NCBI GenBank assembly: GCA_963630805.1
Contig: CAVGNZ010000051.1
Location: 43,255 to 107,254, forward strand
DNA from: Bacteroidaceae bacterium
Lineage (GTDB): Bacteria > Actinomycetota > Coriobacteriia > Coriobacteriales > Coriobacteriaceae
Length of the DNA stretch: 64,000 nt
Direction of reading: 5' to 3'
The notes under the pieces were generated by a model. The model did not search any database, was not told the origin of the DNA, and saw only the letters and a list, made by a program, of their open reading frames with translations. A program made the position numbers and the translations under genes. Shown piece after piece: positions 9,952-49,093 of the stretch; positions within the stretch are counted from its first letter, which is position 1; each line of letters starts with the position of its first letter.

Positions 9952-10189
9952 GAGCACTCCCTCTTTGAGCTGCGGTTTGATTAGAAGTATACAGGTTACT
10001 GCGCAAAAAGAACGTAAAACACCCCGTATGTTTGACACACCGTTCATGTCCAGATGGCTGCCGTTTGCGCGTAGGTGCACGAGGATGCTTTGTATCGCAG
10101 TCCAATGCGCATGGGGAAGAGCAGCCCGATACTTCAAGCCATGGAACAACCGGGGCGAGGCTCCGGAACAACTCACGAGAGGAGTTTTC

Positions 10190-11995
10190 ATGGCCGAAGA
10201 GGAGTACAAGGGCATCTACAAGAAGATGACCTTTGACGGCGAGGAGTTCGAGGTGCCCTTTGCCAAGGGCAACCCCGGCAAGTCCCGCGAGGAGCTTGAG
10301 GAGATCAAGCGCCGTCTGGCCGAGGATCCCGAGGCCGGCGACGGCGAGATGGTCGCCACCATGGGCTTCTGCGCCAAGTACAACCCGCACACCTACATGA
10401 CCAACATCGACGGCATCATGTGCGAGCGCGACGTGGCCTGCGTTCTGCGCGATGGCACCACCATCTACGCGGACGTCTACCGTCCCGCCAACACCACCCA
10501 GAAGGTGCCCGTCATCTGCGTCTTCGCCCCGTTTGGCAAGAACCCTTCCGAGGGCATGGACTCCTGGCAGCTCATGGGCGTGCCGCCTAAGACCGTCTCC
10601 GAGTACGCCAAGTTCGAGGCGCCCGACCCCGGCTACTGGTGCCACTACGGTTACGCGGTGGCCAACGTCGACCCGCGCGGCGTGGGCAACTCCGAGGGCG
10701 ACGTGTACCTGTGGGGCTCCCAGGACGCCCAGGACGGCTATGACTTCATCGAGTGGATCACCGCTCAGGAGTGGTGCAACGGCCACGCCACGATGATCGG
10801 CAACTCCGGCGTCTGCATGGCCCACTGGCGCATCGCGGCCCAGCGTCCGCCGCACCTGTCCTGCCTTGCCGCCTGGGAGGGTCAGGGTGACCTCTACCGC
10901 GAGTCCTACTTCTGCGGCGGTATCCCCAACCCCGACTACGAGACCCACATCATCCAGGCGCTCGCCGTCAACAACTACATCGAGGACACCCCCAAGATGG
11001 TGGCCGAGAACCCGCTGATGAACGCCTACTACAAGGACAAGATCGTCGACTGGAACAAGATTCGCATCCCGACCTACGTCACCGCCGGCTGGGTGCACCA
11101 TCACCTGCGCGGCGCCTTCGAGGGCTTCCGTCGCATCCGTTCGCCCAAGAAGTGGATGCGCGCCCACCGCGACTTCGAGTGGCCCGACACCTACACCCCG
11201 GCGAACCTCGACGACGTGCGTCGCTTCTTCGACCGCTATTGCAAAGAGATCCACAACGGCTGGGAGATGACCCCGCGTGTGCGCATCGACGTCATGGACG
11301 CCTATGACTACGACTACGCCTCCAAGCGCGCCGAGGACACCTTCCCGCTCAAGCGCACCGAGTACAAGAAGCTCTATCTCGACGCTGCCAACGGCGAGGC
11401 CGGCTTCGAGGAGTACGCCAACGAGGCCGAGGTCGTCTACGACCCCAAGACCGAGACCACCACGTTCACCTACGAGTTCACCGAGGACACCGAGATCACC
11501 GGTTTCATGAAGCTGCACCTGAACGTCGAGTGCCGCGGCTACGACAACATGGACCTGTTCCCCTGGGTCATCAAGCTCGATCACGAGGGCAACTACGTGC
11601 CCATCCGCGTCATGGGTAACCCCTTCCGCGGCGCCTGGGGCTTCCTGCGCTGCAGCCACCGCGACCTCGATCCCAAGTACGCATCCGACTTCCAGCCCGT
11701 GCACAGCCACGAGAAGGAGGAGCGCATGCAGCCCGGCGAGATCGTGCCCGTGGACGTCGAGATGTACCCGCACTCCCGCTTCTGGCACAAGGGCGAGAAG
11801 CTCCAGGTGGTCATCGCCGGCCGCTTTATCAAGACCGAGTGGTTCCATGACAACGACATGAACCACAAGACCGACAACGGCGACGGTATGCACGTCATCC
11901 ACACCGGCGGCGAGCACCAGTCCTATCTGCAGATCCCCGTTGTTCCGCCTAAGTACCAGGTGGGCGACTACATCTGGCGCGGTGACTGCTGCTAG
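10190..11995 (+). CDS. CocE/NonD-family serine hydrolase (X-Pro dipeptidyl-peptidase / alpha-amino-acid ester hydrolase fold)
   Basis: Family strings: YGYAVANVDPRGVGNSEGD, DGYDFIEWITAQEWCNGHATMIGNSGVCMAHW (nucleophile elbow GNSG) and a C-terminal jelly-roll region. ATG at 10190 follows GAGAGGAG. Confidence 0.8.
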   Translation: MAEEEYKGIYKKMTFDGEEFEVPFAKGNPGKSREELEEIKRRLAEDPEAGDGEMVATMGFCAKYNPHTYMTNIDGIMCERDVACVLRDGTTIYADVYRPANTTQKVPVICVFAPFGKNPSEGMDSWQLMGVPPKTVSEYAKFEAPDPGYWCHYGYAVANVDPRGVGNSEGDVYLWGSQDAQDGYDFIEWITAQEWCNGHATMIGNSGVCMAHWRIAAQRPPHLSCLAAWEGQGDLYRESYFCGGIPNPDYETHIIQALAVNNYIEDTPKMVAENPLMNAYYKDKIVDWNKIRIPTYVTAGWVHHHLRGAFEGFRRIRSPKKWMRAHRDFEWPDTYTPANLDDVRRFFDRYCKEIHNGWEMTPRVRIDVMDAYDYDYASKRAEDTFPLKRTEYKKLYLDAANGEAGFEEYANEAEVVYDPKTETTTFTYEFTEDTEITGFMKLHLNVECRGYDNMDLFPWVIKLDHEGNYVPIRVMGNPFRGAWGFLRCSHRDLDPKYASDFQPVHSHEKEERMQPGEIVPVDVEMYPHSRFWHKGEKLQVVIAGRFIKTEWFHDNDMNHKTDNGDGMHVIHTGGEHQSYLQIPVVPPKYQVGDYIWRGDCC

Positions 11996-12091
11996 GCAGG
12001 CACCCGTGCACCCGGGGGCGGACACGCGCCGCTCCCGGCGGGGTCGCTCCACGTGGACCCCGTACCCGCTCGAATCCGAGCGTATCCGCTA

Positions 12092-12133
12092 GGCGGGAGG
12101 TCTCTCCTCTCTCTGCGCCTCCCGCCCTCTTTT
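12092..12133 (+). terminator. Hairpin or attenuator between the hydrolase and MFS genes
   Basis: Stem ggcgggagg / cctcccgcc (12092-12100 and 12118-12126), followed by ctctttt. It overlaps the RBS region of the next gene, so it may be only a partial terminator. Confidence 0.4.
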
Positions 12134-12143
12134 GGGAGTTCAC

Positions 12144-13439
12144 ATGTCTGAACAAAAGAAATTCAACGCCTGGCTGCCCAACTTCGGCGCCAAGGGTTGG
12201 GGCATCACCATTGCCTGCTTTGTCTTCTTCTACTTCTATTCCTTCTGGAACGCGGCCACCAACACGCTGTTCGGCCTGTACACCGATATGTACGGCTGGC
12301 AGCAGACCGACATGTCCTACGTCATCACCGTGGCCGGCTGGATCAGCCTGATCGCCGTGGTGCTGTTCGGCACGCTCGGCCGCAAGATCGGCGCCAAGAT
12401 GGTTTCGGTCATCGGCCTTGCGGGATCTGCCGTGGGCTTTGCGATCCTCGCAATGGCCTCAACGTTCGAGCTGTTCGTGGCCGGTGTCGTGGTGTTCAAC
12501 TTCGCCATGGTCGCCTATGCCACCATCGGCGTGGGCCTGCTCGGTTCCAGCTGGTTCCCGCGCACCAAGGGCGCGTTCATGGGCATCGCCACCATGGGCA
12601 TGACCATCTCCTCCGCCACGCTGAACCCCATCATCTTGGGTTTTGCGGGCAGCGCCATGGGCGTCTCTGGGTTCTTCTGGGCCATGGCCGCCATCGTCGC
12701 CGTGACCGCCGTCGCGGTGTTCCTCTTCGTGAAGAACAACCCCGAGGAGGCAGGCGCCTATCCCGATAACGATCAGTCCGTTTCCCGCGAGGAGCTCGAG
12801 GCAGAGTTCCATGCCGCCATGGAGTACAAGAAGACGAGCCCGTGGACCACGGCGCGCGTCCTCAAGACTCCGCAGACCTGGCTTATCGGCCTGGGTACCG
12901 GCCTGCCCATGATGGTCGGCGCCGGCACCATCGCGCTGCTCGTCCCCACGCTGGCCGCCTACGGCCAGGACCCGATGTTCGGCGTCGTGCTGCTTTCTTC
13001 CATGTGGCCGATCGGCCTGCTTGGGCACTATCTCATCGGCGTGCTCGACCAAAAGCTCGGCACCAAGAAGACCACGCTCATCGTTATCTGCGTGCTCGGT
13101 CTGGGCGGCCTGCTCGTCAAGCTCGGCGGCACCAGCTCCGTGGTCTGCGCCGTCGCGACCGGCATGTTCATGTTCGGCCTGTCCGGCGCCGCGAACGTCT
13201 GCATGTCGCTTACGGCCTCTATCTACGGCCGCGCCGACTTCGACGTAGCCTACACGCCCATCCAGGTCATCTTCAACGTCCTGAACTTTGCCGGCGTCTC
13301 CGTCATGTCCACCGTCTCTGCAACCTTTGGCCCCGCCAACGTGATGCTCGCCGTGTTCATCATCTGCGTGGTGGCACTGGTGCCCGTGATCGCGCTGCCC
13401 TATAAGCAGATCGCGTCCAACATCAACGGGCAGAACTAG
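12144..13439 (+). CDS. MFS transporter
   Basis: About 12 predicted hydrophobic helices, with a central hydrophilic loop around NNPEEAGAYPDNDQSVSREELEAEF. ATG at 12144 follows GGGAG. Confidence 0.85.
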   Translation: MSEQKKFNAWLPNFGAKGWGITIACFVFFYFYSFWNAATNTLFGLYTDMYGWQQTDMSYVITVAGWISLIAVVLFGTLGRKIGAKMVSVIGLAGSAVGFAILAMASTFELFVAGVVVFNFAMVAYATIGVGLLGSSWFPRTKGAFMGIATMGMTISSATLNPIILGFAGSAMGVSGFFWAMAAIVAVTAVAVFLFVKNNPEEAGAYPDNDQSVSREELEAEFHAAMEYKKTSPWTTARVLKTPQTWLIGLGTGLPMMVGAGTIALLVPTLAAYGQDPMFGVVLLSSMWPIGLLGHYLIGVLDQKLGTKKTTLIVICVLGLGGLLVKLGGTSSVVCAVATGMFMFGLSGAANVCMSLTASIYGRADFDVAYTPIQVIFNVLNFAGVSVMSTVSATFGPANVMLAVFIICVVALVPVIALPYKQIASNINGQN

Positions 13440-13553
13440 CCGTCCAGCAGCTGCGCACCCATTGAGCCGGAGCGTCGCAGCCGCCAGACAGACCTTCTGT
13501 AACGTAGCCGAGCGAGCGCCCGGCAGCAACCAACCGATCGAAAGGATCACATC

Positions 13554-13805
13554 ATGAACGAATTCCAGGAAGAAGTAGTCGAGATCCTGAAGGACAAGGC
13601 CGTCGACATCTTTGGCGTCGACCGCGACAGCCTTTCTGCCGACACCCGTTTTGCCGAGGACCTGCACTGCAAGTCCGTGAACATCGTCCAGTTCGCCTCT
13701 GCACTCGAGGACGAGTACGAGGTCGAGGTGCCCTTCATGGAGCTTAACAAGAAGGCCACCTTCGCCGAGGCCGCCCAGTTCGTGGACGACGTCCTCTCTA
13801 TGTAG
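13554..13805 (+). CDS. Stand-alone acyl-carrier-protein-like protein (phosphopantetheine attachment site predicted at Ser41)
   Basis: 83 aa. FAEDLHCKSVNIVQFASALEDEYEVEVPF aligns by eye with the E. coli AcpP segment [29 protein letters not shown]. The Ser codon is at 13674-13676. RBS AAAGGA. Confidence 0.72.
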   Translation: MNEFQEEVVEILKDKAVDIFGVDRDSLSADTRFAEDLHCKSVNIVQFASALEDEYEVEVPFMELNKKATFAEAAQFVDDVLSM

Positions 13806-13877
13806 CAACCGCCGCGGGCCCGTGCGCGCCAGACGCCGCGGGCCCGCTTTCACTTCGCAGAAGAAAGGATCCAACCG

Positions 13878-14876
13878 ATGGCAACGCTCATCGAAAAGCT
13901 TATCGCCGACGCCAAGGGCACGCCCAAGCGCGTGGCGCTTCCCGAGTGCGAGGCGGCAAACACCCTGCTCGCCGCCCGCCGCGTGGCCGACGAGGGCATC
14001 GGCACCCCGGTTCTCGTGAGCCCGCGCGACGTGATCGAGGCCACGGCCAAGGAGGCCGGCGTCTCGCTCGAGGGCATGGAGATCGTCGACAGCACCGACG
14101 AGGCCGCGGCCGACGCGCTTGCCGAGCGCTACATGGCCTGCGGCACCCCGCGCCTGATCTCTGCCAAGGGTGCGCGCCGCAAGATCAAGAACCCCATGTA
14201 CTTCGCCATGATGATGGAGGAGCTGGGCGACGTTGACTGCACGTTCTGCGGCCATACCAACACCACCGGCGACGTGCTCATGTGCGCACAGACCATCATC
14301 GGCCTGGCCGAGGGCGTCGACGTGCCGAGCATCTTCGCGCTCGTGGAGACCGAGGGCTTCGAGGGCCCTGAGGGCAACGTCATCGCCTTTACCGACTGCG
14401 GTCTGAACCCCGAGCCCACCGCCGAGGAGCTGGCCTCCATCGCCATCTCCGCCGCCGACAACGTGCGCTCCATCATGGCTTGGGAGCCCCGCGTGGCGTT
14501 CCTCTCGTTCTCCACGGACGGCTCGGGCGCCGGCGTCTCCGTCGATCGCGTGAAGCAGGCCATCGAGCTTGTGCACGAGCGCCGCGCCGACCTGGCCGTC
14601 GACGGTGAGTTTCAGCTCGATACTGCCATCGACCCCAAGGTCGCCGCCAAGAAGGTCAAGCGCGAAAGCGACGTCGCCGGACGCGCCAACGTGCTGGTGT
14701 TCCCCGATCTCAACGCCGCGAACATCGCCGTCAAGCTTATCCAGTGCTTCGCTCACGGCGCGGCCTACGGCCATAACCTCTCGGGCTTCAAGTGCCCCGT
14801 GGCCGACTCGAGCCGCGGCGCCACGGTGGACGAGATCGTGGGCGACATCGCGATGCTCGTGCTCTCCGCGCGCTAG
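13878..14876 (+). CDS. PTA_PTB-family phosphotransacylase (phosphate acetyl/butyryl-transferase-like)
   Basis: 332 aa, short-form Pta architecture. C-terminal signature [22 protein letters not shown] resembles the Pta motif FPDLEAGNIGYK. Confidence 0.85.
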   Translation: [332 protein letters not shown]

Positions 14877-14885
14877 GCCCCGCAT

Positions 14886-15326
14886 ATGACTAAGTGGTCT
14901 TTGGAGGTCGTGCTGTGCGACCTGGTGCTCGCGCTCGTGATCAACACGTCGGCTATGCTCATCTCGGGTGCGGCCATCACGTTCCAGACCTGGTACCCGG
15001 GCGTGGCGAGCGCGTTTTTCACCAATGCGCTGCTGCAGCTCGTGCTGCCGGTGCCGGCCTGGGGGCAGCTACTGAGCCGCCCGCTTGCCGCCTCGCGCAT
15101 CCGCCCCGTTCTCTCGGTCTTTGTGGAGAACCTCGTCTTTGTGACCTGCATCTCCTTCACCATGGCGTGCATCCAGGCGCCGAGTGCGGCCCAGATCGTG
15201 CCCACGTGGCTTGCCACCTATGTCTACCTGGTGGGAATCGGCTACGTCACCTCGCTTGTCCTGTTTGCCGCCACGCACGGCGGTCACCTTCTGCTCGCAC
15301 CCGCGGCGGGCGCTATCGATTACTAA
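14886..15326 (+). CDS. Small integral membrane protein of unknown function (about 4 hydrophobic segments)
   Basis: It sits tightly between the phosphotransacylase stop (14876) and the kinase start (15348). Hydrophobic stretches include LVLALVINTSAMLISGAAI and VYLVGIGYVTSLVLFAA. I could not assign a family with confidence. Confidence 0.55.
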   Translation: MTKWSLEVVLCDLVLALVINTSAMLISGAAITFQTWYPGVASAFFTNALLQLVLPVPAWGQLLSRPLAASRIRPVLSVFVENLVFVTCISFTMACIQAPSAAQIVPTWLATYVYLVGIGYVTSLVLFAATHGGHLLLAPAAGAIDY

Positions 15327-15347
15327 CTGCTTTTGAAGGGATATCCC

Positions 15348-16472
15348 ATGGCATACAAGATCTTGACCCTCTCTCCGGGTTCTACCTCCACCAAGGTGGC
15401 CGTGTTCGATGGCACCGAGGCACTCTTCCGTCTGAACGTCACGCACCCGGCAGACGAGCTTGCCAGCTTTGACCAGGCGGCCGACCAGTTCGAGTACCGC
15501 AAGAAGACCATCCTCGCGGCCCTTGATGAGCAGGGTCTGAAGCTTGAGGACATCGATGCGTTCTCCGGCTACTGCGGCTCCATGGGCCCCACCGTGGGCG
15601 GCATCTTCGCTATCGACGACACCGTCTGCGAGCACGTGCTCAACGCCGGCGTGAACCACCCCGCTATTCTGGGCGCTCCGCTGCTGCACGCCTTTGCGCA
15701 GCAGACCGGTAAGCCCGCCTTTGCCGTGAACCAGCCCGACACCGACGAGCTCGAGGACGTGGCGCGCATCACCGGTTGGCCCGGCGTGTACCGCAAGAGC
15801 CATGTGCACTGCCTGAACCAGAAGGAGTGCGCGATTCGCTGCGCCGCAGAGCAGGGCAAGACCTACGAGACCGGCAACTATATCGTTGCGCATGTGGGCG
15901 GCGGCCTTTCCGTGGCCTGCCACAACCATGGCCGCATGATCGACACCAACGATGTGCTCGAGGGCGCAGGCCCCTTCGCCCCCAACCGCTGCGGCGACGT
16001 GCCCGCCAAGCCGGTGGTCAAGATGGCGTTTGCCGAGGGCGCGGACCAGAAGACCATGAACGCCGTAATCGGTAAGACCGGCGGCCTGGTGGGCCTGTGC
16101 GGTACCGACGACGCGCGCATCATCTGCGAGCGTATCGAGAACGGCGACGAGTGGGCGCGCGTGGTCTACGACGCCATGGCCTACCAGGTGGCTAAGTACA
16201 TCGCGGGCTTTGCCGCGGTGCTTAAGGGCCAAGTGGACGGCATCGTGCTTACCGGTGGCGTCTCGCACGACCCGCACTTTGTCTCCTATGTCTCCGAGCG
16301 CGTCGAGTGGATCGCGCCCGTGCACGTCTACGCCGGCGACTTCGAGATGGACGCTCTCGCTTCCGGCGCCATCCGCGCGCTCGACGGCGAGGAGGCCGTG
16401 ATGACCTACACCGGCGAGCCCTCCTGGAAGGGCTTCACGATGCCCGGCGCCTTTGCCGACGTGATGGCGTAA
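15348..16472 (+). CDS. buk: Butyrate-kinase-family acyl kinase (ASKHA fold)
   Basis: KILTLSPGSTSTKVAVFDG (phosphate-1 motif), IVAHVGGGLSVACH, GGLVGLCGTDD and LTGGVSHD. ATG at 15348 follows GAAGGGA. Confidence 0.9.
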   Translation: MAYKILTLSPGSTSTKVAVFDGTEALFRLNVTHPADELASFDQAADQFEYRKKTILAALDEQGLKLEDIDAFSGYCGSMGPTVGGIFAIDDTVCEHVLNAGVNHPAILGAPLLHAFAQQTGKPAFAVNQPDTDELEDVARITGWPGVYRKSHVHCLNQKECAIRCAAEQGKTYETGNYIVAHVGGGLSVACHNHGRMIDTNDVLEGAGPFAPNRCGDVPAKPVVKMAFAEGADQKTMNAVIGKTGGLVGLCGTDDARIICERIENGDEWARVVYDAMAYQVAKYIAGFAAVLKGQVDGIVLTGGVSHDPHFVSYVSERVEWIAPVHVYAGDFEMDALASGAIRALDGEEAVMTYTGEPSWKGFTMPGAFADVMA

Positions 16473-16487
16473 GTTGGGCTGCCGATC

Positions 16488-17423
16488 ATGAGTTTTACCG
16501 ATACCGCTCTTCAGATGGTGGTGCTCGCCATCCCCATCCTCATCGGCTACATCGCCCACAAGCTCGGCTTTATGGGTGGCGACTTTGACTCGGGTGTCTC
16601 CAAACTCGTTGTCAACGTCACCCTGCCGTGCATGATCGTGGCCTCCATCTGCGGTCGCGACCTGCCCGATGCCGGCGTGCTCGTGCGGCTGCTCGCGTTC
16701 TCATTCGTGGGCTATGTCATCGCTACCGCCATTGCGCTCGTGGTGCCGCGCCTGATGGGAACCGACCGGGCCCTGCGCGGCGCGTACAGCTTTATCGTTG
16801 CGTACGGCAACGTGGGGCTTATCGGCTTCCCCGTGCTCTCCGCAGTGCTGGGCAGCGAGGCCGTCCTTTACGCCGCCATCGCGAACATCCCCTGGAACAT
16901 CTTTGTGTTCAGCGTGGGCATGATCTTGATCTCCGGCGTGCCCGAGGGCGGTATCGGCACGGTGGCGAAGAGCTGCGGCAAGCAGCTGCTCTCGCCGGTG
17001 CTCATCGCGAGCGTGCTGGTCTTGGTGCTGGTCCTGCTTGGCGTGAACGACCTGGGTGTGCTCGGCAGCGGCCTTTCCACCTGCGGCGCGTTCACCACAC
17101 CCGCGGCGCTTTTGCTCTCCGGGTCTTCGCTGGCCAACTATTCGGCACGCGAGATGGTCAACAACTGGCGCGCCTACGTGGCCGTGGCCTTTCGCCTGGT
17201 GGGCGTGCCCTTGGTGCTGCTGCTCGTGATGCGCCTGTTCGTGAACGACCCGTTTACGCTTGCCATCATCGTACTGGGGCAGGCCATGCCCGTGGCCACC
17301 AACGGCATCCTTTACTGCCTTTTGTACGGCGTTGACGCCAAGCCCATGACGCAGGGCACCTTCATCTCGATCGTGGCCTCGATCCTTACCATCCCGCTCA
17401 TGGCCATGCTCGTGATGGCCTAA
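16488..17423 (+). CDS. AEC-family (auxin efflux carrier-like) transporter
   Basis: 311 aa with about 10 TM segments. The N-terminus MVVLAIPILIGYIAHKLGFM...SKLVVNVTLPCMIV is typical of AEC/malate-permease-type proteins. Confidence 0.8.
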   Translation: MSFTDTALQMVVLAIPILIGYIAHKLGFMGGDFDSGVSKLVVNVTLPCMIVASICGRDLPDAGVLVRLLAFSFVGYVIATAIALVVPRLMGTDRALRGAYSFIVAYGNVGLIGFPVLSAVLGSEAVLYAAIANIPWNIFVFSVGMILISGVPEGGIGTVAKSCGKQLLSPVLIASVLVLVLVLLGVNDLGVLGSGLSTCGAFTTPAALLLSGSSLANYSAREMVNNWRAYVAVAFRLVGVPLVLLLVMRLFVNDPFTLAIIVLGQAMPVATNGILYCLLYGVDAKPMTQGTFISIVASILTIPLMAMLVMA

Positions 17424-40747: not shown

Positions 40748-40787
40748 TTGCTTGTTAAGGGCCGGTTTTCAATCGGCCTTTTTCATC

Positions 40788-42137: not shown

Positions 42138-42169
42138 ACAGGCCAGAGCATCGTCTCTGGCCTGTTTTT
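42138..42169 (+). terminator. Intrinsic terminator after tRNA-Val
   Basis: Stem acaggccagag / ctctggcctgt, followed by ttttt. Confidence 0.8.
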
Positions 42170-42264: not shown

Positions 42265-42882
42265 ATGGCGGAGTTCAAAGAAGAGGGCGCCCCGGCGAGC
42301 GTGCTCGATCGTATCGAGGACGCCGTGTTCGAGCTGATGAAGACCAAGCCGATCCCCGCTATCAAGACCGTTGAGGTCATTCGCCTGGCACGCACCTCCA
42401 AGTCGACCTTCTACCGCTATTTCAAAAGCGTCGACGATGTGGTCAAGCGTTTTGAGGACAAGCTGCTCCACAACATGCAGGGCATCAACGACGTCGCCCT
42501 CGAGGCACGCTTTGCCGACTCGCAGCTCGATCCCACGCCCACGATGATTCGTCGCATGGAGGTCCTGCGCCAGAACCGCGAGAAGGTCTTGGCGCTCAAC
42601 AGCCCTAACGGGGACCCGACCTTTTCGCACAAGGCCACGGTTTTCATGCACGACTACTTCCGTGACCGCTTGCGCGGCACGTTCTCGGACGAGACGAACT
42701 TCGACCTGTATCTCGCCTTCGCCCTGGCCGGGCACAATAACCTGATTCAGTACTGGCTTGAGGTCCGGCCCGATATCGAGCCGCGTATCCTTGCCGCGGC
42801 CCTTAACCGCCTGTTCTTCTCTCCTCTGTTTGTGGACGAGACGGCGCGCCACTGGCATCCGCATATTCCCGATTTCGAATAG
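42265..42882 (+). CDS. TetR/AcrR-family transcriptional regulator
   Basis: N-terminal HTH IKTVEVIRLARTSKSTFYRYFKSVDDVV. ATG at 42265 follows GGGGGA (alternative ATG at 42253). Confidence 0.8.
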   Translation: MAEFKEEGAPASVLDRIEDAVFELMKTKPIPAIKTVEVIRLARTSKSTFYRYFKSVDDVVKRFEDKLLHNMQGINDVALEARFADSQLDPTPTMIRRMEVLRQNREKVLALNSPNGDPTFSHKATVFMHDYFRDRLRGTFSDETNFDLYLAFALAGHNNLIQYWLEVRPDIEPRILAAALNRLFFSPLFVDETARHWHPHIPDFE

Positions 42883-43208
42883 GTTTCCAAACCCGCGTTT
42901 TGAGGCGGGCGGTTCCGTTTGCAAGGTGAACGGTGTTCGACATTGCCGCAAACGGAGGGTTTTTGCATAAAACAAGCCTCTGAGATACAGCGTTTTACCT
43001 GTGGATTGGAACGAAATCATAAAAACAGTCCCAATCGGTGGGACTCTAAACGCAAAAGCGTCCCACGGGGGCGTTTGCGCGTTTCTTAAACTGAAGTCAC
43101 GTTCAGAAGAACCACTGCAGTAGTTCAACGTATGGCAGCAATAAAAAAGCCGAGAGCGCTCTTCCACCTTCGCTCCCGGCCGCCTTTGCGCTGCCATTCC
43201 GCAAACCT

Positions 43209-43227
43209 TCACATGATTAGGATGTGA
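43209..43227. promoter_or_regulatory. Palindrome TCACAT-N7-ATGTGA upstream of the thiolase-like gene (candidate TetR operator)
   Basis: tcacatgattaggatgtga, 28 nt upstream of the ATG at 43255, at the end of an AT-rich 370-bp intergenic region. Confidence 0.3.
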
Positions 43228-43254
43228 TCATCAGTGGTTACGCTCGGAAAGAAC

Positions 43255-44520
43255 ATGCGCAGCGTCTCGATTGTAGGCGTTGGCTGCACCCCGTTCAAGG
43301 ATTTTGAGGAGCACCCTGAGACCCAGGGCATCGGCGAAGGCGAGGCCTTTGGCTACGCGGCCCTTGAGGCCATCGCGGACGCCGGCCTTGAGCCGCGCGA
43401 CGTCGATTTCTACTATCACGGCTCCGCTAACCCTTACCTCATCAACGACTGCATCACCCCGAATATGCAGGTTGCCGACTGGTTCGGCATGCGCGCCAAG
43501 GCTTCGGTGCACCACTCCGAGGCATGCTGCACGGGCTATGTGGCGCTTGAGCAGGCCGTGATGGCCGTTGCTTCCGGCACGTACGACACGGTGCTCTCCG
43601 GCGCCGTCGACCTTGCCGCCACGCTGCCGGTCGAGCACATGCCCTCCCATATTCGCCAGGACTTCCCGCTTTCCGTCATGCTGCCGTCGCTCGACAAGAT
43701 TTACGACCGCGCGTACGGTCGCCCGCTCGACGGCGCCTTTGGCATCAGCTTCGACAACTGGATCAACGAGTACTCCATGCAGTACGACCTTTCTGTCGAC
43801 CAGATCGACGACGCGCTGAACGGCCTCACCAAGAGCCTGCGCCGCGGCGCCGTGCTGAATCCGCTCGGCTGGTACGAGACCACGATCGAGGAGGACGCCA
43901 AGGCGGCCGGCTTCGATTCTGCCGACGAGTTCCTCAAGAGCATGTACAACCCCCGCGTGACCCAGTACCTGCGCGTCACCGGTTTCGAGAAGAAGTGCGA
44001 CGGCGCCGCCGCCATGGTCGTCATGGCGACCGACAAGGCGCGTGCCCTGGGCCTGCCGCACACCCCGATCGAGGTGCTCGGCACGGGTGCCTCCGCCGTC
44101 GAGGCCGGCCTTGTGCACAACGAGCACTGGGGCACGAGCATCGCGGCCAAGCAGGTCTATGAGCTCACCGGTGTCAGCCCCGACGAGATCGACCTCTTTA
44201 TGTGCAACGACTTCTTCCTGGCGTCCGAGATCGTTTCGGCCGAGGAGTGCGGCTACATCCCGCGCGGCGAGGCCTGGAAGTACGCCATCGAGGGACGTAC
44301 CGCGTTCGATGGCGACAAGCCCATCAACCCGCACGGCGGCCGCTGCAACTTCGGCCATGCCCACGGCGCTTCGGGTATCGCCGATATCGTCGAGGCCGTC
44401 AAGCAGATGCGCGGCGAGGCCGGTGCCACCCAGCTGAAGAAGGTTCCCGAGACCACCTTCCTGCGCGGCTTCGGCGGAAGCCAGAACGTGCGCTGCCAGA
44501 TCCTGCGCACCCTTGCGTAA
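43255..44520 (+). CDS. Thiolase-like protein (SCP-x/DUF35-associated thiolase type)
   Basis: VSIVGVGCTPF, nucleophile context HHSEACCTGYVALEQA and C-terminal NPHGGRCNFGHAHGASG. Confidence 0.85.
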   Translation: MRSVSIVGVGCTPFKDFEEHPETQGIGEGEAFGYAALEAIADAGLEPRDVDFYYHGSANPYLINDCITPNMQVADWFGMRAKASVHHSEACCTGYVALEQAVMAVASGTYDTVLSGAVDLAATLPVEHMPSHIRQDFPLSVMLPSLDKIYDRAYGRPLDGAFGISFDNWINEYSMQYDLSVDQIDDALNGLTKSLRRGAVLNPLGWYETTIEEDAKAAGFDSADEFLKSMYNPRVTQYLRVTGFEKKCDGAAAMVVMATDKARALGLPHTPIEVLGTGASAVEAGLVHNEHWGTSIAAKQVYELTGVSPDEIDLFMCNDFFLASEIVSAEECGYIPRGEAWKYAIEGRTAFDGDKPINPHGGRCNFGHAHGASGIADIVEAVKQMRGEAGATQLKKVPETTFLRGFGGSQNVRCQILRTLA

Positions 44521-44552
44521 CACCACGAACTCGACTTTGAAGGAGTAATCTC

Positions 44553-44972
44553 ATGCAACTCAAGGATATGGAGCCCGTGGTCAAGAAGTTCTACGCGGGT
44601 CTTGAAGAAGGCATCTACTGGGGCCGCAAGTGCCCGGAGTGCGGAACCGTGGAGTTCCCGCCGCACCTGGCCTGCAACGCCTGTGGCTACCACGCAACCG
44701 AGTGGGTCAAGGTTTCCGGTCACGGTCACCTGCTCGACTTCACCATCCCTGGTCCCCAGAACGACAAGCCCTATCTCAAGGAGCACGGCAAGTACGGCTA
44801 CGGCTCCGTCGAGATCGACGAGGGCGCACAGTACACCTACGTGGTCTACGGCGTCTCCAAGAAGAACGCCCCCGAGATCCGCGCCAAGCTCATGGCGGGC
44901 GAGACCGTCGGCGTCCATGCCAAGGTCATCGATAGGCCGGGGTATAAAGAGCTCACCTTCGAGCTCGACTAG
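44553..44972 (+). CDS. DUF35-family Zn-ribbon/OB-fold protein (thiolase partner)
   Basis: Rubredoxin-like CPECGTVEFPPHLACNACG followed by an OB-fold region. RBS GAAGGAG. Confidence 0.85.
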   Translation: MQLKDMEPVVKKFYAGLEEGIYWGRKCPECGTVEFPPHLACNACGYHATEWVKVSGHGHLLDFTIPGPQNDKPYLKEHGKYGYGSVEIDEGAQYTYVVYGVSKKNAPEIRAKLMAGETVGVHAKVIDRPGYKELTFELD

Positions 44973-45257
44973 CGGCGGCTTTCCCAAGCACCGCATCTTG
45001 GCGCTCAAGCCGTCGCTTGCGCACCTTCGTACGCGGCGCTCCTCTTTCGCACCAACCTGCGGCACTTGGAAAACCCGCGGGGTGACGGAACGTTCGGGCT
45101 TCGGGCTTATCGCTCAAGAGTCTCGAGAGCCTGCGGGCGATGCCACCTCAAATCGTTTTCGATCAACCGATCCTCTTTCTGCTGCGGCGGGCTTTGTCTC
45201 CTGCCCGCCGCGGCCTCATCTCTCTTACCTATTTGAACAACCAGAAAGGAACCAACC

Positions 45258-45494
45258 ATGTCTAACGAAGAGCTCTCTGCGCAGATCTGCGAGTTCGCCA
45301 AGTCCGCTTACGGCTACGAGGGCGAGGTCACGCCCGAGACCACCTTTGAGACTCTCGGCAAGGGCTCGATGAAGATGATCGCGCTCACCTCCATGATCGA
45401 GAACGAGCTCGACGCCGAGGTGCCCGTGCGCGAGGTCATGGTCATGAAGACCGTGAGCGAGCTCATCGAGCGCGCCGCCGAAGAGCTGGAGTAA
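45258..45494 (+). CDS. Stand-alone acyl-carrier-protein-like protein (predicted attachment Ser37)
   Basis: 78 aa. TFETLGKGSMKMIALTSMIENELDAEVPV aligns by eye with the AcpP segment [29 protein letters not shown]. The Ser codon is at 45366-45368. RBS GAAAGGA. Confidence 0.68.
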   Translation: MSNEELSAQICEFAKSAYGYEGEVTPETTFETLGKGSMKMIALTSMIENELDAEVPVREVMVMKTVSELIERAAEELE

Positions 45495-45498
45495 GGCC

Positions 45499-46506
45499 AT
45501 GGACCTCATGCAGACCCTGCGCGAGCGCGCTGCCGCCTCGCCGGTGCGCGTGGCGTTTCCCGAGGGCGATAACGAGACCATGATGCAGGCGGTGGCCAAG
45601 CTCACCGCTGAGGGCCTGGCCAAGTGCGTGTTGGTGGGCGAGGGCGCCCAGCTGCACGATCTGGCTGCCGAGCGCGGCATCTCGCTCGAGGGCGTCGAGA
45701 TCGTCGACGTTGCCGACGAAGAGGCCAACGCCGCCTGCTGCGAGCGCTACCTGGCGCATCCCGACTGCCAGTTCAAGCCCAAGGGCGCTGCGCGCCGCAT
45801 GACCCGCCCGCTCGAGCGTTCGCTCATCATGCAGGTGCTGGGCGACGTGGACGTCACCTTCGCCGGTATCGATTACGCCACGGGCGACATCATCCTGGCC
45901 GGCCAGACGATCGTCGGCCTGGCCGACGGCGTGGACACCATCAGCTCGGTGGGCATCGCCGACGTTCCCGGTTGGGACGGCGGCGAGGGCGGTCTGATCG
46001 GCTTTGGCGATTCTGCCGTGTGCGTCGACCCCACAAGCGAGGAGCTCGCCTCTATCGCCATCAGCGGTTGCGAGACCGTCGCGGCCCTGACCGGCTGGGA
46101 CGTGCGCTGTGCCATGCTCTCGCACTCCACCGACGGCTCTATGGACAACGCGCTTGTCGACAAGGTGCGCGCTGCCCGTGACATCGCGAACGAACGCCGC
46201 CCGGACCTCAAGATCGACGGTGAGTTCCAGTTCGACTCCGCCATCAACCCTAAGGTCGCGGCCAAGAAGGTCCACCGCGAGTCCGAGGTCGCCGGTCGCG
46301 CCAACCTGCTTATCTGGCCCGATATCAACGTGGGCAACATCGGCGTCAAGATCATCCAGAACCTCACGGGCGCCAACGCCTACGGCCCCATGATCCAGGG
46401 CTTCAAGAAGATCGTTTGCGACTGCTCGCGCTCCGCGCCTGTCGACGAGATCGTCGGCAACGTGGTCATGAGCTGCGTGCGCGCTCAGGCGCTGAAGGAG
46501 GCTTAA
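45499..46506 (+). CDS. PTA_PTB-family phosphotransacylase (paralog of 13878-14876)
   Basis: [47 protein letters not shown] here, against [47 protein letters not shown] in locus A. It starts 4 nt after the carrier-protein stop. Confidence 0.85.
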   Translation: [335 protein letters not shown]

Positions 46507-46510
46507 AGGC

Positions 46511-47659
46511 ATGTCTACTGAGAGGAAACCCTGGCGCGTACTCGTTATCAACCCCGGCTCGACCTCTACCAAGGTGGGCCTCTTTGAGGGCGAGACCGCC
46601 GTATTCCAGAAGAACGTGGCACACGACGCGAGCGATCTTGCCAAGTTCGCCGGCGTCTCCGCGCAGATGCCGTACCGCTGCAAGCTGATTTTGGAGGCGC
46701 TCGACGAGGCGAACGTGGAGCTTGCCGACATCGATGCCTTTGTGGGGCGCGGCGGCGGCCTGATCGCCATGCCCGGCGGCACCTATACGATCGGCGAGAA
46801 GCTGCTTGAGGATGCGACCGCGGGCGCGAACGGCGTCCAGCACCCGGCGCAGCTTGGTCCCCAGATCGCCCACGAGTTTGCCTCCCGCTTTGGCAAGCCC
46901 GCCTTTGTGGTGAACCCGCCCGACACCGACGAACTGTGCGACCTTGCGCGCATGACCGGTATCGACGGCGTGTACCGCACCGTGCACCTGCATGCCCTGA
47001 ACCTCAAGGAGACGGCCATCCGCCATGCGGCCTCGATGGGACGCGCCTACAACGAGTGCAACTTCATCGTCTGCCATATCGGCGGCGGTATCTCCATCTC
47101 CGCGCACGAGCACGGCAAGATGGTCGACGGCAACGACATCGTCGGCGGCGAGGGCCCCATGGCGCCCACGCGCTGCGGTTCGGTGCCCGCCATCGAGGTC
47201 GCCAAGTACACGGCCGAGAACGGCCTGCGCGCCGCCCGCTCGCTGTGCATGAAGACCGGCGGCTTTGTGGACCTGCTCGGCACCTCGGACGCCATCGAGG
47301 TCTGCGAGCGCGCCGCTGCCGGCGACACCCGTGCCGCCCGCACCTGGGACGCCATGGTCTACCAGATCTGCAAGTGGATCGGCGAGATGTCCTGCGTGCT
47401 CAAGGGGCATGTCGACGGCATCCTGCTCGGTGGCGGCATGGTTCACAACAAGGACCTCGTGGCCGCGATCGAGGCGTCCTGCGGATGGATTGCGCCCGTT
47501 ACGGCGTACCCCGGAGAGTTCGAGCTCGAGGCCATGGCGGCAGGCGCCACCCGCGTGCTCGATGGCACCGAGGAGCCCCTTGTCTACACCGGCGAGCCGG
47601 TGTTCGCGGGCTTCGACGACGCCTCGCCGACCGACTCCGGCGCCGCCAGGGCCGCCTAG
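46511..47659 (+). CDS. buk: Butyrate-kinase-family acyl kinase (paralog of 15348-16472)
   Basis: VLVINPGSTSTKVGLFEG, IVCHIGGGISISAH and GKPAFVVNPPDTDELCDLARMTGIDGVYR, against GKPAFAVNQPDTDELEDVARITGWPGVYR in locus A. Confidence 0.9.
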   Translation: MSTERKPWRVLVINPGSTSTKVGLFEGETAVFQKNVAHDASDLAKFAGVSAQMPYRCKLILEALDEANVELADIDAFVGRGGGLIAMPGGTYTIGEKLLEDATAGANGVQHPAQLGPQIAHEFASRFGKPAFVVNPPDTDELCDLARMTGIDGVYRTVHLHALNLKETAIRHAASMGRAYNECNFIVCHIGGGISISAHEHGKMVDGNDIVGGEGPMAPTRCGSVPAIEVAKYTAENGLRAARSLCMKTGGFVDLLGTSDAIEVCERAAAGDTRAARTWDAMVYQICKWIGEMSCVLKGHVDGILLGGGMVHNKDLVAAIEASCGWIAPVTAYPGEFELEAMAAGATRVLDGTEEPLVYTGEPVFAGFDDASPTDSGAARAA

Positions 47660-47746
47660 CTTTCACCCTCTCTCAGGGCGGCGTGACGGGCTGCCTCCAC
47701 ATGGCCCCGCCGCGCCGCACGCTCGGATTAGAAACGAGAAACCACC

Positions 47747-48946
47747 ATGGATAAAACCAAGATCAAGTACCTGGTCGGCATTTACGCCGCCGCCATGTGC
47801 ATCATGGGCATGCTCGTGCCCGTGCCCATCGTCGCCTCCGTCGCGGCCGCCTTCCCGGGCGAGAACATCGCCGCCGTGCAGATGATCATCGGCATCATCC
47901 CGCTCATGATGGCCATCTCCGCCATGCTCGTGTCCTCGCAGCTCGCGAGCCGTGTCTCCAAGAAGACGACGACCCTTGTGGGACATGTCATCGTCATGCT
48001 CGCCGGTGCCTCGGTGCTGCTGTTCCACAGCGCCCTGTGGCAGGTGCTCGCCGCCTCGGCCATCATGGGCCTGGGCCTCGGCGCCGTGCAGAACTCCACC
48101 GATGCCCTTATCGCCGACTACTTTGGCGGCAAGCAGCGCTCCTTTGTCATGGGCATCTACTCCACGTTCGTCGCGCTCGGCGGCATCATCTGGACGATGG
48201 TCTCGGGCATCCTCGGTGCCGACGCCTGGTTCCACTCCTATGCGGCCTACTTCATCATGGTGATCTTCATCATCATCGAGGCCATCTGCCTGCCCGAGGG
48301 CCATCTGGAGCCCAAGCGCCACGTGAACGTGTTCTCCAACATGCCCAAAGAGGTCAAGATCATCACCCTCATGAGCTTCATCTTTGTGCTGTGCTTCCAG
48401 CTCTTCAGCTCCAACGTGTCGCTCATCGTGGTCGGCCGCGGCTTTGGCGGCACGGTCGAGTCCGGTCTTGCCTCCACGGTCATGACCATCGCCGGCATCG
48501 CCGCCGGCCTGCTGGTGGGACCGCTGTTCGCCAAGTTCAAGAACCTCTCTATGCCCATCGCCTGGGCGGTAACCCTTGTCGGCCTGGGCGTCGCCCTTGT
48601 GGCCCCGTCGTTTGCGATGCTCTGCATCGGAGGCTTCGTCATCTCGCTCGGTAAGGAGACCTACGTGCCGCTCGAGGGTAACTTCGCGGCCGGTAACTCC
48701 GCACCCGAGGGCCGTGCCTTCAACCTGGCTATCGGCATGGCGGGCATCAACTTTGGCATGGCGCTCTCGCCGCTCGTGTTCGAGGCCGTGACCAGCCCGT
48801 TCGGTGCCACGATCGACCAGAAGTTCATCGCCGGCATGATCGTGTGCCTGGCCTGCGTGATCTTTGGCGCCGTCAAGTACCGCAAGCTCACCCCGGCTCA
48901 GATCGCCGAGGCCGAGAAGATGGCCGCCGAGGGCGAGGCGGAGTAG
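47747..48946 (+). CDS. MFS transporter
   Basis: 399 aa with about 12 hydrophobic helices. It is on the same strand and directly follows the kinase gene. Confidence 0.85.
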   Translation: MDKTKIKYLVGIYAAAMCIMGMLVPVPIVASVAAAFPGENIAAVQMIIGIIPLMMAISAMLVSSQLASRVSKKTTTLVGHVIVMLAGASVLLFHSALWQVLAASAIMGLGLGAVQNSTDALIADYFGGKQRSFVMGIYSTFVALGGIIWTMVSGILGADAWFHSYAAYFIMVIFIIIEAICLPEGHLEPKRHVNVFSNMPKEVKIITLMSFIFVLCFQLFSSNVSLIVVGRGFGGTVESGLASTVMTIAGIAAGLLVGPLFAKFKNLSMPIAWAVTLVGLGVALVAPSFAMLCIGGFVISLGKETYVPLEGNFAAGNSAPEGRAFNLAIGMAGINFGMALSPLVFEAVTSPFGATIDQKFIAGMIVCLACVIFGAVKYRKLTPAQIAEAEKMAAEGEAE

Positions 48947-49021: not shown

Positions 49022-49093
49022 AACGTCCGCCCGCGGCGGGTCGGTTGGGGTTTTCCGAGTGGCCTCAACCGCCCCGCCGCGGGCGGACGTTTT
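49022..49093 (+). repeat. 29-bp GC-rich inverted repeat (27/29) with a 12-nt loop, immediately after the terminator
   Basis: aacgtccgcccgcggcgggtcggttgggg (49022-49050) pairs with cctcaaccgccccgccgcgggcggacgtt (49063-49091), followed by tt. Confidence 0.8.

Follow-up and report, generated by a model that had tools for sequence, protein, structure and literature searches.

A candidate carrier-protein-dependent route from carbon-carbon bond cleavage to ATP in a Collinsella-type thiolase/DUF35 operon

The phosphotransacylase-kinase pairs Pta-AckA and Ptb-Buk use coenzyme A (CoA). In PlsX and Fak, acyl groups on acyl carrier protein (ACP) and acyl-phosphate are interconverted and a kinase acts on the acyl-phosphate; to our knowledge, PlsX is the only established case of chemistry between acyl-ACP and phosphate. 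Glycine reductase phosphorolyses a protein-bound thioester to acetyl-phosphate, which yields ATP. Thiolase-like proteins paired with a DUF35 protein are known from BbsAB and the archaeal thiolase/HMGCS/DUF35 complex, which use CoA thioesters, and from two Friedel-Crafts C-acyltransferases, PhlACB (PpATase), which serves 2,4-diacetylphloroglucinol biosynthesis, and MucABC (SmaATase), which serves that of reutericyclin. We analyzed a 64,000-nucleotide stretch of contig CAVGNZ010000051.1 (positions 43,255 to 107,254; the window) in which one gene cluster, locus B, places a thiolase/DUF35 pair beside an ACP, a Pta-like enzyme and a butyrate kinase homologue (Buk). All of these parts come from known families, but we found no described counterpart for their combination, in which a carrier would stand in for CoA and be matched by a seemingly CoA-blind Pta subfamily. 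Full-text literature searches turned up neither a report of thiolase/DUF35 occurring together with ACP and Pta/Buk nor one that links DUF35 proteins to flavonoid metabolism in the gut.

Locus B comprises seven genes on the + strand (about 42265-48946 of the window), which encode a TetR-family regulator, a thiolase-like protein, a DUF35 protein, an ACP, a Pta-like enzyme, a butyrate kinase and a major facilitator superfamily (MFS) transporter (Table 1). The codon bias of all seven open reading frames (ORFs) was of coding type (GC3 0.80-0.91). This same-strand cluster had been described in an initial annotation; all its ORFs were present, and their families could be assigned by Pfam and NCBIfam. 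The distances given there were also exact, with 4 nt between the ACP and pta genes, 4 nt between pta and buk, and a spacer of 285 nt between DUF35 and ACP; the thiolase and DUF35 genes are 32 nt apart. The thiolase start that it implied, ATG 43255, did not stand, because homologues are 428 aa long with the N-terminus MVKLGK, which makes GTG 43234 the most likely start.

We read locus B as a self-contained operon for carrier-protein-dependent C-C bond cleavage that leads through an acyl-phosphate to ATP, and we give this reading a probability of roughly one in two. The chemical steps, their direction and the substrate are deduced from gene content, synteny, gene fusions, the adjacency of a phosphopantetheinyl transferase (PPTase), residue patterns and gene neighbourhoods. 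In the proposed pathway, the invariant Cys of the thiolase/DUF35 complex would attack the carbonyl of a beta-dicarbonyl or an acyl-phenol, so that the C-C bond is broken and an acyl-enzyme is formed. The acyl group would then pass to the phosphopantetheine thiol of the dedicated ACP docked on DUF35, the Pta-like enzyme would phosphorolyse acyl-ACP to acyl-phosphate and holo-ACP, and the butyrate kinase homologue would convert acyl-phosphate to ATP and the free acid. TetR would keep the operon repressed in the absence of the substrate or a related compound, and the MFS protein would import the substrate or export the acid. Locus A, a sister cluster in the same window, would form a second arm, with an S15 serine hydrolase that supplies acyl groups to an ACP of its own. 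That the ACP is the thiol partner of both halves of the operon is the firmest part of this scheme and, in our judgement, likely; the use of the carrier in place of CoA between thiolase/DUF35 and Pta/Buk, which had already been suggested, was supported by four independent comparative lines, namely synteny, fusions, PPTase adjacency and the loss of arginines from Pta.

The window is assigned to Collinsella, the source of the best homologues of the locus B thiolase, and the order TetR-thiolase-DUF35-ACP-Pta-Buk-MFS was colinear in about 80 Collinsella species representatives (GTDB) wherever the contig allowed. A contig scan was saturated by Collinsella matches at identities of at least 90% and shows within-genus synteny; the wider diversity comes from single look-ups and from a metagenome scan seeded with an alignment of ACP-linked Ptas only. 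The thiolase-DUF35-ACP-Pta-Buk core recurred in Atopobiaceae, other Coriobacteriia and Firmicutes/Clostridia, with thiolase identities of 46-73% and locus GC contents of 35-68%; the Pta homologues listed were all from Coriobacteriia, and queries by exact sequence with the window Pta and with the thiolase of Collinsella sp. zg1085 gave no recorded entry. The metagenome scan returned 80 loci, with Pta identities from 87% down to 53% and GC contents of 35-68%. Thiolase/DUF35 was found in 60 of these 80 loci and an S15 hydrolase in 13, and ACP and Buk were present in 69/80 and 65/80, respectively. Ten loci were too short upstream to judge, and only two with enough flanking DNA had neither front end. 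The DUF35 gene was always 3' of the thiolase gene in the relatives examined. The initial annotation had allowed that the two halves of the locus might not be syntenic in relatives, or that orthologous loci might carry CoA-dependent partners. The halves proved to be syntenic well beyond Collinsella, and no orthologous locus had such partner genes: no CoA-transferase, CoA-ligase or beta-oxidation gene was seen in any locus context examined, and no hbd, crt, bcd-etf or butyryl-CoA transferase in the window or any related locus. Its statement that hydratase, dehydrogenase and CoA-transferase genes are absent held for locus B and for every relative examined.

Outside Collinsella, gene order varied around this core (percentages are thiolase identities). 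L084 (71%) has PPTase, an FLR-like FMN reductase, PucR, thiolase, DUF35, ACP, Pta, Buk and a flavoprotein trio, and L086 (61%) has the same order with two thiolase-DUF35 pairs. The order in L091 (54%) is AcpS, TetR, thiolase, DUF35, ACP, Pta, Buk, and in L092 (72%) FLR-like, PucR and TetR genes precede the core, which is followed by a locus-A-like Pta-Buk-MFS set. In Lachnospiraceae (L001-L003, L093 and L094; 56%), ACP-thiolase-DUF35 was found with MFS, an alpha/beta hydrolase and PPTase, or with TetR, and had no Pta-Buk nearby. L088 and L090 (56-57%) lack an ACP, and their thiolase-DUF35 genes are surrounded by AP_endonuc_2, GFO_IDH_MocA, ThuA and aldo-keto reductase genes. Three contigs carrying the Collinsella-type operon at 90-97% identity (L004, L005 and L081) were filed under Faecalibacterium prausnitzii, Roseburia sp. 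CAG:303 and Ruminococcus sp. metagenome-assembled genomes; these assignments are probably binning errors.

The locus B ACP is not the housekeeping AcpP (NCBIfam 23 bits versus a cut-off of 66). In alignments its Ser37 falls on Ser36 of E. coli AcpP, the residue that bears phosphopantetheine, and this serine was kept in 7/7 ACPs compared, all of which were acidic (pI 4.1-4.8). Beyond its own small family, this ACP is closest to the carrier domains of polyketide synthases (PKS) and nonribosomal peptide synthetases (NRPS). In L173 the DUF35 protein is fused to two PP-binding domains (DUF35::ACP::ACP). A database search with this fusion returned 74 protein clusters, nearly all with DUF35 and PP-binding domains, from Oscillospiraceae, Lachnospiraceae and others; the existence of such fusions suggests that the ACP docks on the DUF35 subunit. 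An ACPS-family PPTase gene lay directly 5' of TetR in 62 Collinsella loci, and one also adjoined the operon in L001, L084 and L091. At about 200-250 aa, the PPTase encoded next to the operon exceeds AcpS in size and is therefore probably of the Sfp type. No PPTase was found upstream of TetR in the window, in L006 or in two Atopobiaceae loci, and none within the 64-kb window; the cognate PPTase should therefore be encoded elsewhere in the genome.

The locus B Pta matched PTA_PTB only in the Pfam scan and is not a member of the FA_synthesis family of PlsX, although it may work in a PlsX-like manner. Its score was below the pta equivalog cut-off (TIGR00651, 228 versus 311 bits). In an alignment to Methanosarcina thermophila Pta (1QZT; MtPta), D307, S309 and R310 were kept and position 316 was acidic (Glu), but Arg87 was replaced by His and Arg133 by Leu. 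The protein is thus a PTA_PTB member with the catalytic residues, without the arginines and the equivalog score of a CoA-dependent Pta. Among 166 ACP-linked Ptas, which included the locus A type and both types in other taxa, Arg133 was absent from 165 and Arg87 from all 166, whereas Asp307, Ser309, Arg310 and Glu316 were each conserved in 164-165. Both arginines were present in 5/5 solved Ptas aligned. Mutagenesis of M. thermophila Pta has shown that Ser309 and Arg310 govern kcat and that Arg87 and Arg133 govern the Km for CoA (PMC6461089). The residue pattern is therefore suggestive of a subfamily that has lost its grip on the CoA nucleotide and retained the chemistry, which would fit a protein-borne phosphopantetheine as substrate. 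Judged by its NCBIfam score, the kinase qualifies as a butyrate kinase equivalog (Table 1).

The thiolase-like protein has candidate catalytic residues in Cys98 (numbered from the GTG start), within HHSEACCTG, and His375, within GHAHGASG, and is a putative acyl-enzyme catalyst. In 7yvy the counterpart of the HHSEACCTG Cys is the Cys of AACASG. The Cys-Cys pair, the GHx His and the N-D pair were invariant in 150 thiolase homologues (46-100% identity), and in all of these the archaeal HDxF motif was NDFF, with the His replaced. In fold (AF2 model, pLDDT 78, pTM 0.86), in its Cys and GHx His and in its adjacent DUF35 gene, the protein belongs to the DUF35-associated/SCP-x clade of the thiolase superfamily. 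PDB and Foldseek searches placed it about equally far (19-27% identity, TM 0.74-0.80) from all clade members compared, namely the Pyrococcus and Methanothermococcus thiolases, SCP2 thiolases, PhlC/CsATase, MucB, BbsB, Ltp2 and the Sal aldolases. It was far under every NCBIfam cut-off (163 versus 420 bits), and residues of about 120-230, the region of the substrate-binding loop domain in thiolases, aligned with no solved structure. The DUF35 protein matched 9myr_B, 3irb, 6esq_E and 6ok1_B in the PDB.

Closer assignments within the clade were rejected. An archaeal acetoacetyl-CoA thiolase is not indicated, given the NDFF motif, the lack of an HMGCS-like gene in any locus and a score of 132 versus 600 for AcCoTHIOL_METTL. 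Nor is BbsB (NF053628, 95.6 bits versus a cut-off of 750) or a PhlACB/MucABC acyltransferase, for which a third thiolase-fold or HMGS-like ORF was lacking in the window and in relatives. A PhlC-type assignment by homology was given up because sequence and fold searches place the thiolase no nearer to PhlC than to CoA thiolases, and only the analogy was kept. PhlC and MucB keep CxS and GHx and lack HDxF (PMC12960953). When PhlC crystals were soaked with monoacetylphloroglucinol, Cys88, the equivalent Cys, became acetylated (PMC6392133); direct removal of an acyl group from an aryl-ketone C-C bond is therefore within the reach of a thiolase-like enzyme associated with DUF35.

Compared with these systems, locus B resembles PhlACB/MucABC in pairing a thiolase-like protein with DUF35 and in lacking the canonical HDxF. 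By analogy, acylation of the Cys from an acyl-phloroglucinol C-C bond and reversible C-acyl transfer might be shared as well. PhlACB/MucABC differ in having a third, HMGS-like subunit (PhlA/MucA) and show only 19-20% identity to the locus B thiolase; they sit in biosynthetic PKS/NRPS clusters, whereas locus B is linked to a dedicated ACP, Pta and Buk and its proposed net reaction is cleavage. BbsAB and the archaeal complex likewise combine a thiolase with DUF35 (as two subunits in BbsAB), have the Cys and His, and give TM scores of 0.76-0.79, but they act on CoA thioesters, and locus B has NDFF for HDxF and no HMGCS gene. With Pta-AckA/Ptb-Buk the locus shares the PTA_PTB fold with its catalytic residues, the butyrate kinase equivalog and the close adjacency of the two genes (4 nt). 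It differs from them in the proposed carrier donor, in the subfamily-wide absence of the arginines, and in the ACP and acyl-transferring front end that are nearly always adjacent. PlsX, of the FA_synthesis family and unlike the PTA_PTB enzyme of locus B, serves lipid synthesis with the housekeeping AcpP and long-chain acyl groups and is not coupled to ATP formation. The glycine reductase protein C and the ACPs of citrate lyase and malonate decarboxylase are like locus B in the catabolic use of a protein-bound thioester; these systems are of unrelated families, with another prosthetic group or selenoprotein chemistry, and have no separate phosphopantetheinyl ACP shuttle.

Since the neighbours in relatives repeatedly point to plant polyphenols, polyphenol-derived compounds lead the list of substrates. 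Acyl-phloroglucinols, dihydrochalcones (e.g. phloretin-type compounds released in flavonoid breakdown) and a flavone-derived 1,3-diketone are the most likely class, although a flavonoid origin of the substrate is a tentative assignment that we would place well below an even chance. An FLR-like FMN_red protein was encoded near 25 loci, and its sole PDB match was the flavone reductase FLR (7D38). In L132 and L133 a gene with a DAPG_hydrolase domain (E 1.7e-58), whose only PDB matches were PhlG and phloretin hydrolase (Phy), lay between ACP and Pta. Reductases of the old yellow enzyme (OYE) type with Oxidored_FMN and Pyr_redox_2 domains, which we take to be the family of the flavanone-cleaving reductase Fcr, were found near L090, L120 and L170, and genes for a C-glycoside deglycosidase beta subunit, GFO_IDH_MocA and AP_endonuc_2 proteins stood beside L001. 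In 11 loci NuoG/GltD-like and NuoF-like proteins accompanied an ene-reductase-type flavoprotein of the FAD_binding_2 family; such FAD_binding_2 neighbours are similar to fumarate and urocanate reductases and to ketosteroid dehydrogenases. The Collinsella operon itself is self-contained, and its substrate would therefore be an imported compound that can be cleaved without prior redox steps. Phy/PhlG may catalyze the same overall reaction as that proposed for locus B, cleavage of the aryl-C(=O) bond of an acyl-phloroglucinol, but their fold is unrelated to that of the locus B enzymes and, by their names and a review, they are hydrolytic; such hydrolytic cleavage would conserve no energy. No Phy/PhlG homologue was encoded in the window, and phloretin hydrolase homologues are mainly confined to Eubacterium ramulus and Flavonifractor plautii (PMC8398226).

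A conventional explanation would be an ordinary CoA-dependent thiolase with a ptb-buk fermentation of butyrate type, the ACP being an unrelated passenger. The kinase does pass as a butyrate kinase equivalog, homologues are named acetyl-CoA acetyltransferase and phosphate acetyltransferase in their sources, and buk and ptb genes of a Collinsella strain have been read as butyrate-synthesis markers (PMC6463082). We nevertheless consider this pathway very unlikely because the butyrate genes are missing (no hbd, crt, bcd, etf or CoA-transferase in any locus), the ACP lies beside thiolase/DUF35 or Pta in 69/80 independent loci and is fused to DUF35 in 74 clusters, and the Pta is without both CoA-binding arginines; the thiolase, moreover, is far under the acetyl-CoA acetyltransferase models and has NDFF for HDxF. 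The same carrier could also be used in the reverse, acid-activating direction: Buk would phosphorylate a short-chain or aromatic acid, the Pta-like enzyme would load it onto ACP, thiolase/DUF35 would C-acylate by Claisen or Friedel-Crafts chemistry, and MFS would export the product. The closeness of the ACP to PKS/NRPS carrier domains, the Sfp-like size of the adjacent PPTase and the TetR-plus-MFS layout common in biosynthetic clusters would fit such a route. So would the Lachnospiraceae ACP-thiolase-DUF35-MFS-hydrolase-PPTase arrangement, which resembles a minimal biosynthetic cluster, and the DUF35-associated PhlACB and MucABC, biosynthetic C-acylases that take thioester donors; Fak(FakA)/PlsX is an established kinase-plus-transacylase precedent leading to acyl-ACP for exogenous fatty acids. 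Against it, no PKS, NRPS, malonyl-transferase, reductase or tailoring genes were found in any context, the second front end is a hydrolase-family enzyme, and the genes around the locus in relatives have a catabolic character (PucR regulators, glycosidases, C-glycoside lyases, reductases of FLR-like and OYE type, a PhlG/Phy-family hydrolase). A fermenter's Pta-Buk would moreover normally yield ATP, and spending ATP on the acylation of a xenobiotic would seem wasteful when acetyl-CoA is available. Because the neighbours and regulators are catabolic and biosynthetic enzymes are absent, the acid-activating route, though chemically sound, is disfavoured and appears unlikely, and the catabolic, ATP-yielding direction is the somewhat more probable one.

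Thiolysis onto ACP with ATP formation might also proceed exactly as proposed, with a substrate that is not flavonoid-derived. It could be a non-aromatic beta-diketone or beta-keto compound, with reduced curcuminoids, a reduced phloroglucinol ring, intermediates of triacetate type, a diketone from a sugar or cyclitol, or a fragment of a steroid as candidates. This would suit the self-contained Collinsella operon, with no flavonoid genes nearby, and the energetics, since thiolysis of a true beta-diketone should be strongly exergonic, as judged from acetoacetyl-CoA thiolysis, and that of an acyl-phenol should not. The AP_endonuc_2, GFO_IDH_MocA, ThuA, aldo-keto reductase and glyoxalase neighbours in Lachnospiraceae are typical of keto-sugar/cyclitol metabolism, and the FAD_binding_2 neighbours are like fumarate/urocanate reductase and ketosteroid dehydrogenases. 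Non-aromatic beta-diketones are a serious alternative. The FLR-like gene near 25 loci, with flavone reductase as its only PDB relative, the PhlG/phloretin-hydrolase-family gene within the L132 and L133 operons, and the C-glycoside deglycosidase beta subunit that adjoins the L001 cluster speak for flavonoids instead, and we regard a wholly different origin of the substrate as improbable, on a level with the acid-activating route. Inositol-to-propionate metabolism was considered as the context of the Lachnospiraceae thiolases, and no literature support for it was found; a paper on phloroglucinol degradation mentioned only an ordinary CoA thiolase.

Several observations weigh against carrier-dependent cleavage of a polyphenol-derived substrate by locus B. 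The Lachnospiraceae loci L001 and L093 have ACP-thiolase-DUF35 and no Pta-Buk nearby, L088 and L090 are without ACP, and the adjacent PPTase is absent from this window. Arg87 and Arg133 belong to CoA site 2, and mutations of site 2 in P. gingivalis Pta lower activity only moderately, so that the loss of the arginines is suggestive, not decisive. PhlC and the CoA-dependent thiolases are about equally distant from the locus B thiolase. The PhlG/Phy-family hydrolase in the L132 operon would not obviously be needed if the thiolase cleaves. No flavonoid genes stand beside the Collinsella operon, and cleavage of flavonoids or dihydrochalcones by Collinsella was not known from the literature searched. 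Thioesters, acetyl-CoA among them, are good C-acylation donors for PpATase and SmaATase (PMC12960953); the thiolytic cleavage of acyl-phloroglucinols may therefore lie close to equilibrium or run uphill, and the products would have to be removed.

If the proposed pathway is correct, it would be a new form of energy conservation, in which substrate-level phosphorylation runs through a dedicated ACP that is fed directly by a bond-cleaving enzyme, without a CoA ester, and carrier proteins would gain a role in catabolic substrate-level phosphorylation. The system is present in a very abundant human gut genus and may fill open steps in gut flavonoid catabolism. It would provide a testable function for a widespread thiolase/DUF35 clade that has had none assigned and for a Pta subfamily annotated as phosphate acetyltransferase. 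The same holds for the Collinsella "butyrate kinase" genes, which are open to misreading as butyrate-synthesis markers (compare PMC6463082). A CoA-independent, carrier-based enzyme that cleaves or forms C-C bonds would also be of interest for biocatalysis, beside the Friedel-Crafts acylases of PhlACB type.

Table 1. Genes of loci A and B and non-coding elements of locus B (window coordinates; functions of non-coding elements are predicted)
Feature	Coordinates	Strand	Remarks
Locus B, TetR-family regulator	42265-42882	+	205 aa from ATG 42265; Pfam TetR_C_8 33.3 bits (cut-off 26.1), TetR_N 22.2 bits
Locus B, thiolase-like protein, DUF35-associated/SCP-x clade	43234-44520	+	428 aa; Pfam Thiolase_C_1 (PF22691) E 5e-29
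Locus B, DUF35 protein (Cys4 zinc ribbon and OB fold), thiolase partner subunit	44553-44972	+	Pfam zf-ChsH2; Cys4 ribbon in CPECG...CNACG
Locus B, stand-alone acyl carrier protein	45258-45494	+	78 aa, pI 4.25; Pfam PP-binding 33.9 bits (cut-off 20.8)
Locus B, Pta-like phosphotransacylase, proposed acyl-ACP:phosphate acyltransferase	45499-46506	+	Pfam PTA_PTB E 2e-80
Locus B, butyrate-kinase-family acyl kinase (Acetate_kinase family)	46511-47659	+	382 aa; NCBIfam TIGR02707 365 bits (equivalog cut-off 289)
Locus B, MFS transporter	47747-48946	+	399 aa; Pfam MFS_1 E 3e-27; position conserved in Collinsella
Intrinsic-terminator-like hairpin with T-run	42138..42165	+	11-bp stem, TTTTTGTTT tail; 3' of tRNA 42056-42127; upstream locus boundary
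Palindrome, TetR-thiolase intergenic	43027..43045	.	AGTCCCAATCGGTGGGACT; candidate operator
Palindrome	43109..43126	.	GAACCACTGCAGTAGTTC; candidate TetR operator or promoter element
Leader hairpin 5' of thiolase gene	43149..43180	+	GCCGAGAGCG...CGCTCCCGGC; conserved
DUF35-ACP spacer	44973..45257	+	285 nt; extra repeat-like insert of about 145 nt
Intercistronic stem-loop 5' of ACP gene	45181..45214	+	12-bp stem, no T-tract in the window
Terminator-like hairpin 3' of MFS gene	49069..49086	+	Likely operon end
Locus A overall	8386..17423	+ (PucR minus)	PucR, S15 hydrolase, MFS, ACP, Pta, membrane protein, Buk, Mem_trans
Locus A, PucR regulator	8386-10215	minus	
Locus A, CocE/NonD S15 hydrolase	9812-11995 (ORF)	+	Extra N-terminal region of about 200 aa
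Locus A, MFS	12132-13439	+	5' of ACP
Locus A, ACP	13554-13805	+	
Locus A, Pta	13878-14876	+	47% identity to locus B Pta
Locus A, small membrane protein	14886-15326	+	146 aa
Locus A, Buk	15333-16472	+	49% identity to locus B Buk; TIGR02707 373 bits
Locus A, Mem_trans transporter	16488-17423	+	3' of kinase

Locus A had been reported to share its carrier-pta-kinase-MFS back end with locus B. The second cluster is real, but its MFS gene precedes the ACP gene and a Mem_trans gene follows the kinase. The S15 ORF overlaps the PucR ORF by about 400 nt, so one of the two starts must have been called too early, and the S15 start probably lies later. For the S15 hydrolase the sole matches were cocaine esterase and an uncharacterised CocE/NonD structure. 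In L120-L124 and L129 the S15 and thiolase/DUF35 front ends stand side by side, in the order PPTase-ACP-S15-FLR-like-PucR-TetR-thiolase-DUF35-ACP-Pta-Buk. In L175-L177, from a spore-former, S15 with ACP and thiolase/DUF35 with ACP share a single Pta-Buk pair (MerR / thiolase - DUF35::ACP - MFS - Pta - Buk - MFS / ACP - S15 / PucR). Because S15 with its ACP adjoins the thiolase cluster or shares Pta-Buk with it in these genomes, loci A and B look like two arms of one system. A broader and more doubtful reading is that Coriobacteriia, Lachnospiraceae, Oscillospiraceae and other Clostridia use a two-armed acyl-ACP-to-ATP system to harvest the acyl bonds of dietary polyphenols, with thiolase/DUF35 acting on C-acyl and S15 on O-acyl groups, each passing to its own carrier and then to a CoA-blind Pta and Buk. 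The C-acyl substrates would be dihydrochalcones, acyl-phloroglucinols and flavone-derived beta-diketones, and the O-acyl substrates aryl esters or lactones (reduced coumarins, depsides). Reactions now regarded as plain hydrolyses, for instance the one catalyzed by phloretin hydrolase, would then conserve energy in these organisms.

Small proteins of high hydrophobicity (about 135-200 aa) that match no Pfam family recurred in or beside the clusters; they form two unrelated families, one of them found in 13 loci. They are encoded at 15120-15638 of L084, 8660-9169 of L092 and 16038-16646 of L120, and by the small membrane protein gene of locus A in the window. BLASTP between the two families (the locus A protein against that of L084) detected no homology; these proteins may be uptake or export components. 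The protein with the PhlG/phloretin-hydrolase domain in L132 (5934-7370) and L133 (4463-5884) has 478 aa, with an extra C-terminal region of about 200 aa, and the GC content of these loci is 47%. The flavoprotein trio consists of an FAD_binding_2 protein (fumarate/urocanate-reductase-like), a fusion of about 710 aa with NuoG-like Fe-S and GltD-like parts, and a NuoF-like 4Fe-4S protein. It was found in distant taxa (L001 16561-21290; L084 16623-21290; L086 1-4110; L139, L140 and L157 at about 3800-7300) and looks like an NADH- or ferredoxin-linked ene-reductase.

The TetR gene was at the same position in Collinsella, L086, L091, L092 and L093, and its product had no informative relative among solved structures. 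The sequence GGGGGA, which resembles a ribosome-binding site, lies 5' of its ATG 42265; a longer ORF from GTG 42199 is less likely. The MFS transporter weakly resembles aromatic acid/H+ symporters (TIGR00895, E 1.5e-5, under the cut-off). The terminator-like hairpins on either side leave locus B cleanly bounded. The 3' half of the TetR-thiolase intergenic region was strongly conserved and holds both palindromes and the leader hairpin. In the first palindrome, GTCCCA-N5-TGGGAC was kept across Collinsella and was degenerate in the Atopobiaceae L007/L074. The second was nearly invariant in the aligned Collinsella loci (one substitution, in L006). The 10-bp stem of the leader hairpin is perfect in most Collinsella loci; the window copy has a single mismatch.

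The initial annotation had also placed a hairpin without a T-tract at 45183-45210 in the DUF35-ACP spacer; the hairpin is real and the T-tract is indeed lacking, but the structure extends further on both sides (Table 1). The folding energy was -35.8 kcal/mol for a 98-nt stretch (z = -6). Within Collinsella the stem-loop is conserved, with a pair changed in compensatory fashion from G-C to A-T, and in Atopobiaceae another hairpin occupies this place; a role in mRNA processing, stability or attenuation is conceivable. The idea that the 285-nt spacer divides independently regulated halves was rejected, because most relatives have a short spacer (103-116 nt) and the excess in the window is a repeat-like insert. 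In the closest relative, L004, the spacer is without the insert, and L005 and L006 have further copies of a unit containing GGCACCTGGAAAACCC. The repeat-like element with GGCACYTGGAAAACCC, of which L005 and L006 have 2-3 copies, was located at 44973-45160 of the window, 1851-2730 of L005 and 3652-4470 of L006, and a degenerate copy lies on the minus strand at 49048-49063, just 3' of the MFS gene. It may be a small intergenic mobile repeat of Collinsella. An Rfam scan returned tRNAs only, with no riboswitch in the leader or the spacer, and a sigma-70 promoter scan gave no informative result.

The rest of the window encodes ordinary housekeeping functions (gltBD, peptide ABC transporters, a SpoIIE-type phosphatase, P-II, a pot-type ABC system and nrdDG). 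In the region 37456-40547, the gene for a PAS/GAF-SpoIIE phosphatase (778 aa) precedes an ORF of 249 aa, the translation of which resembles an anti-sigma-antagonist and kinase-type partner-switching protein with no obvious link to the operon. Four tRNA genes lie just 5' of the operon (40672-40986 and 42056-42127). In C. aerofaciens L071, alpha-amylase and PPTase genes are 5' of the operon and nrdD/nrdG immediately 3'. In the window about 11 kb are inserted between the operon and nrdDG (60323-63347), and this insert carries P-II, the pot-type ABC system, an ornithine cyclodeaminase homologue, flavoproteins and an Fe-ADH.

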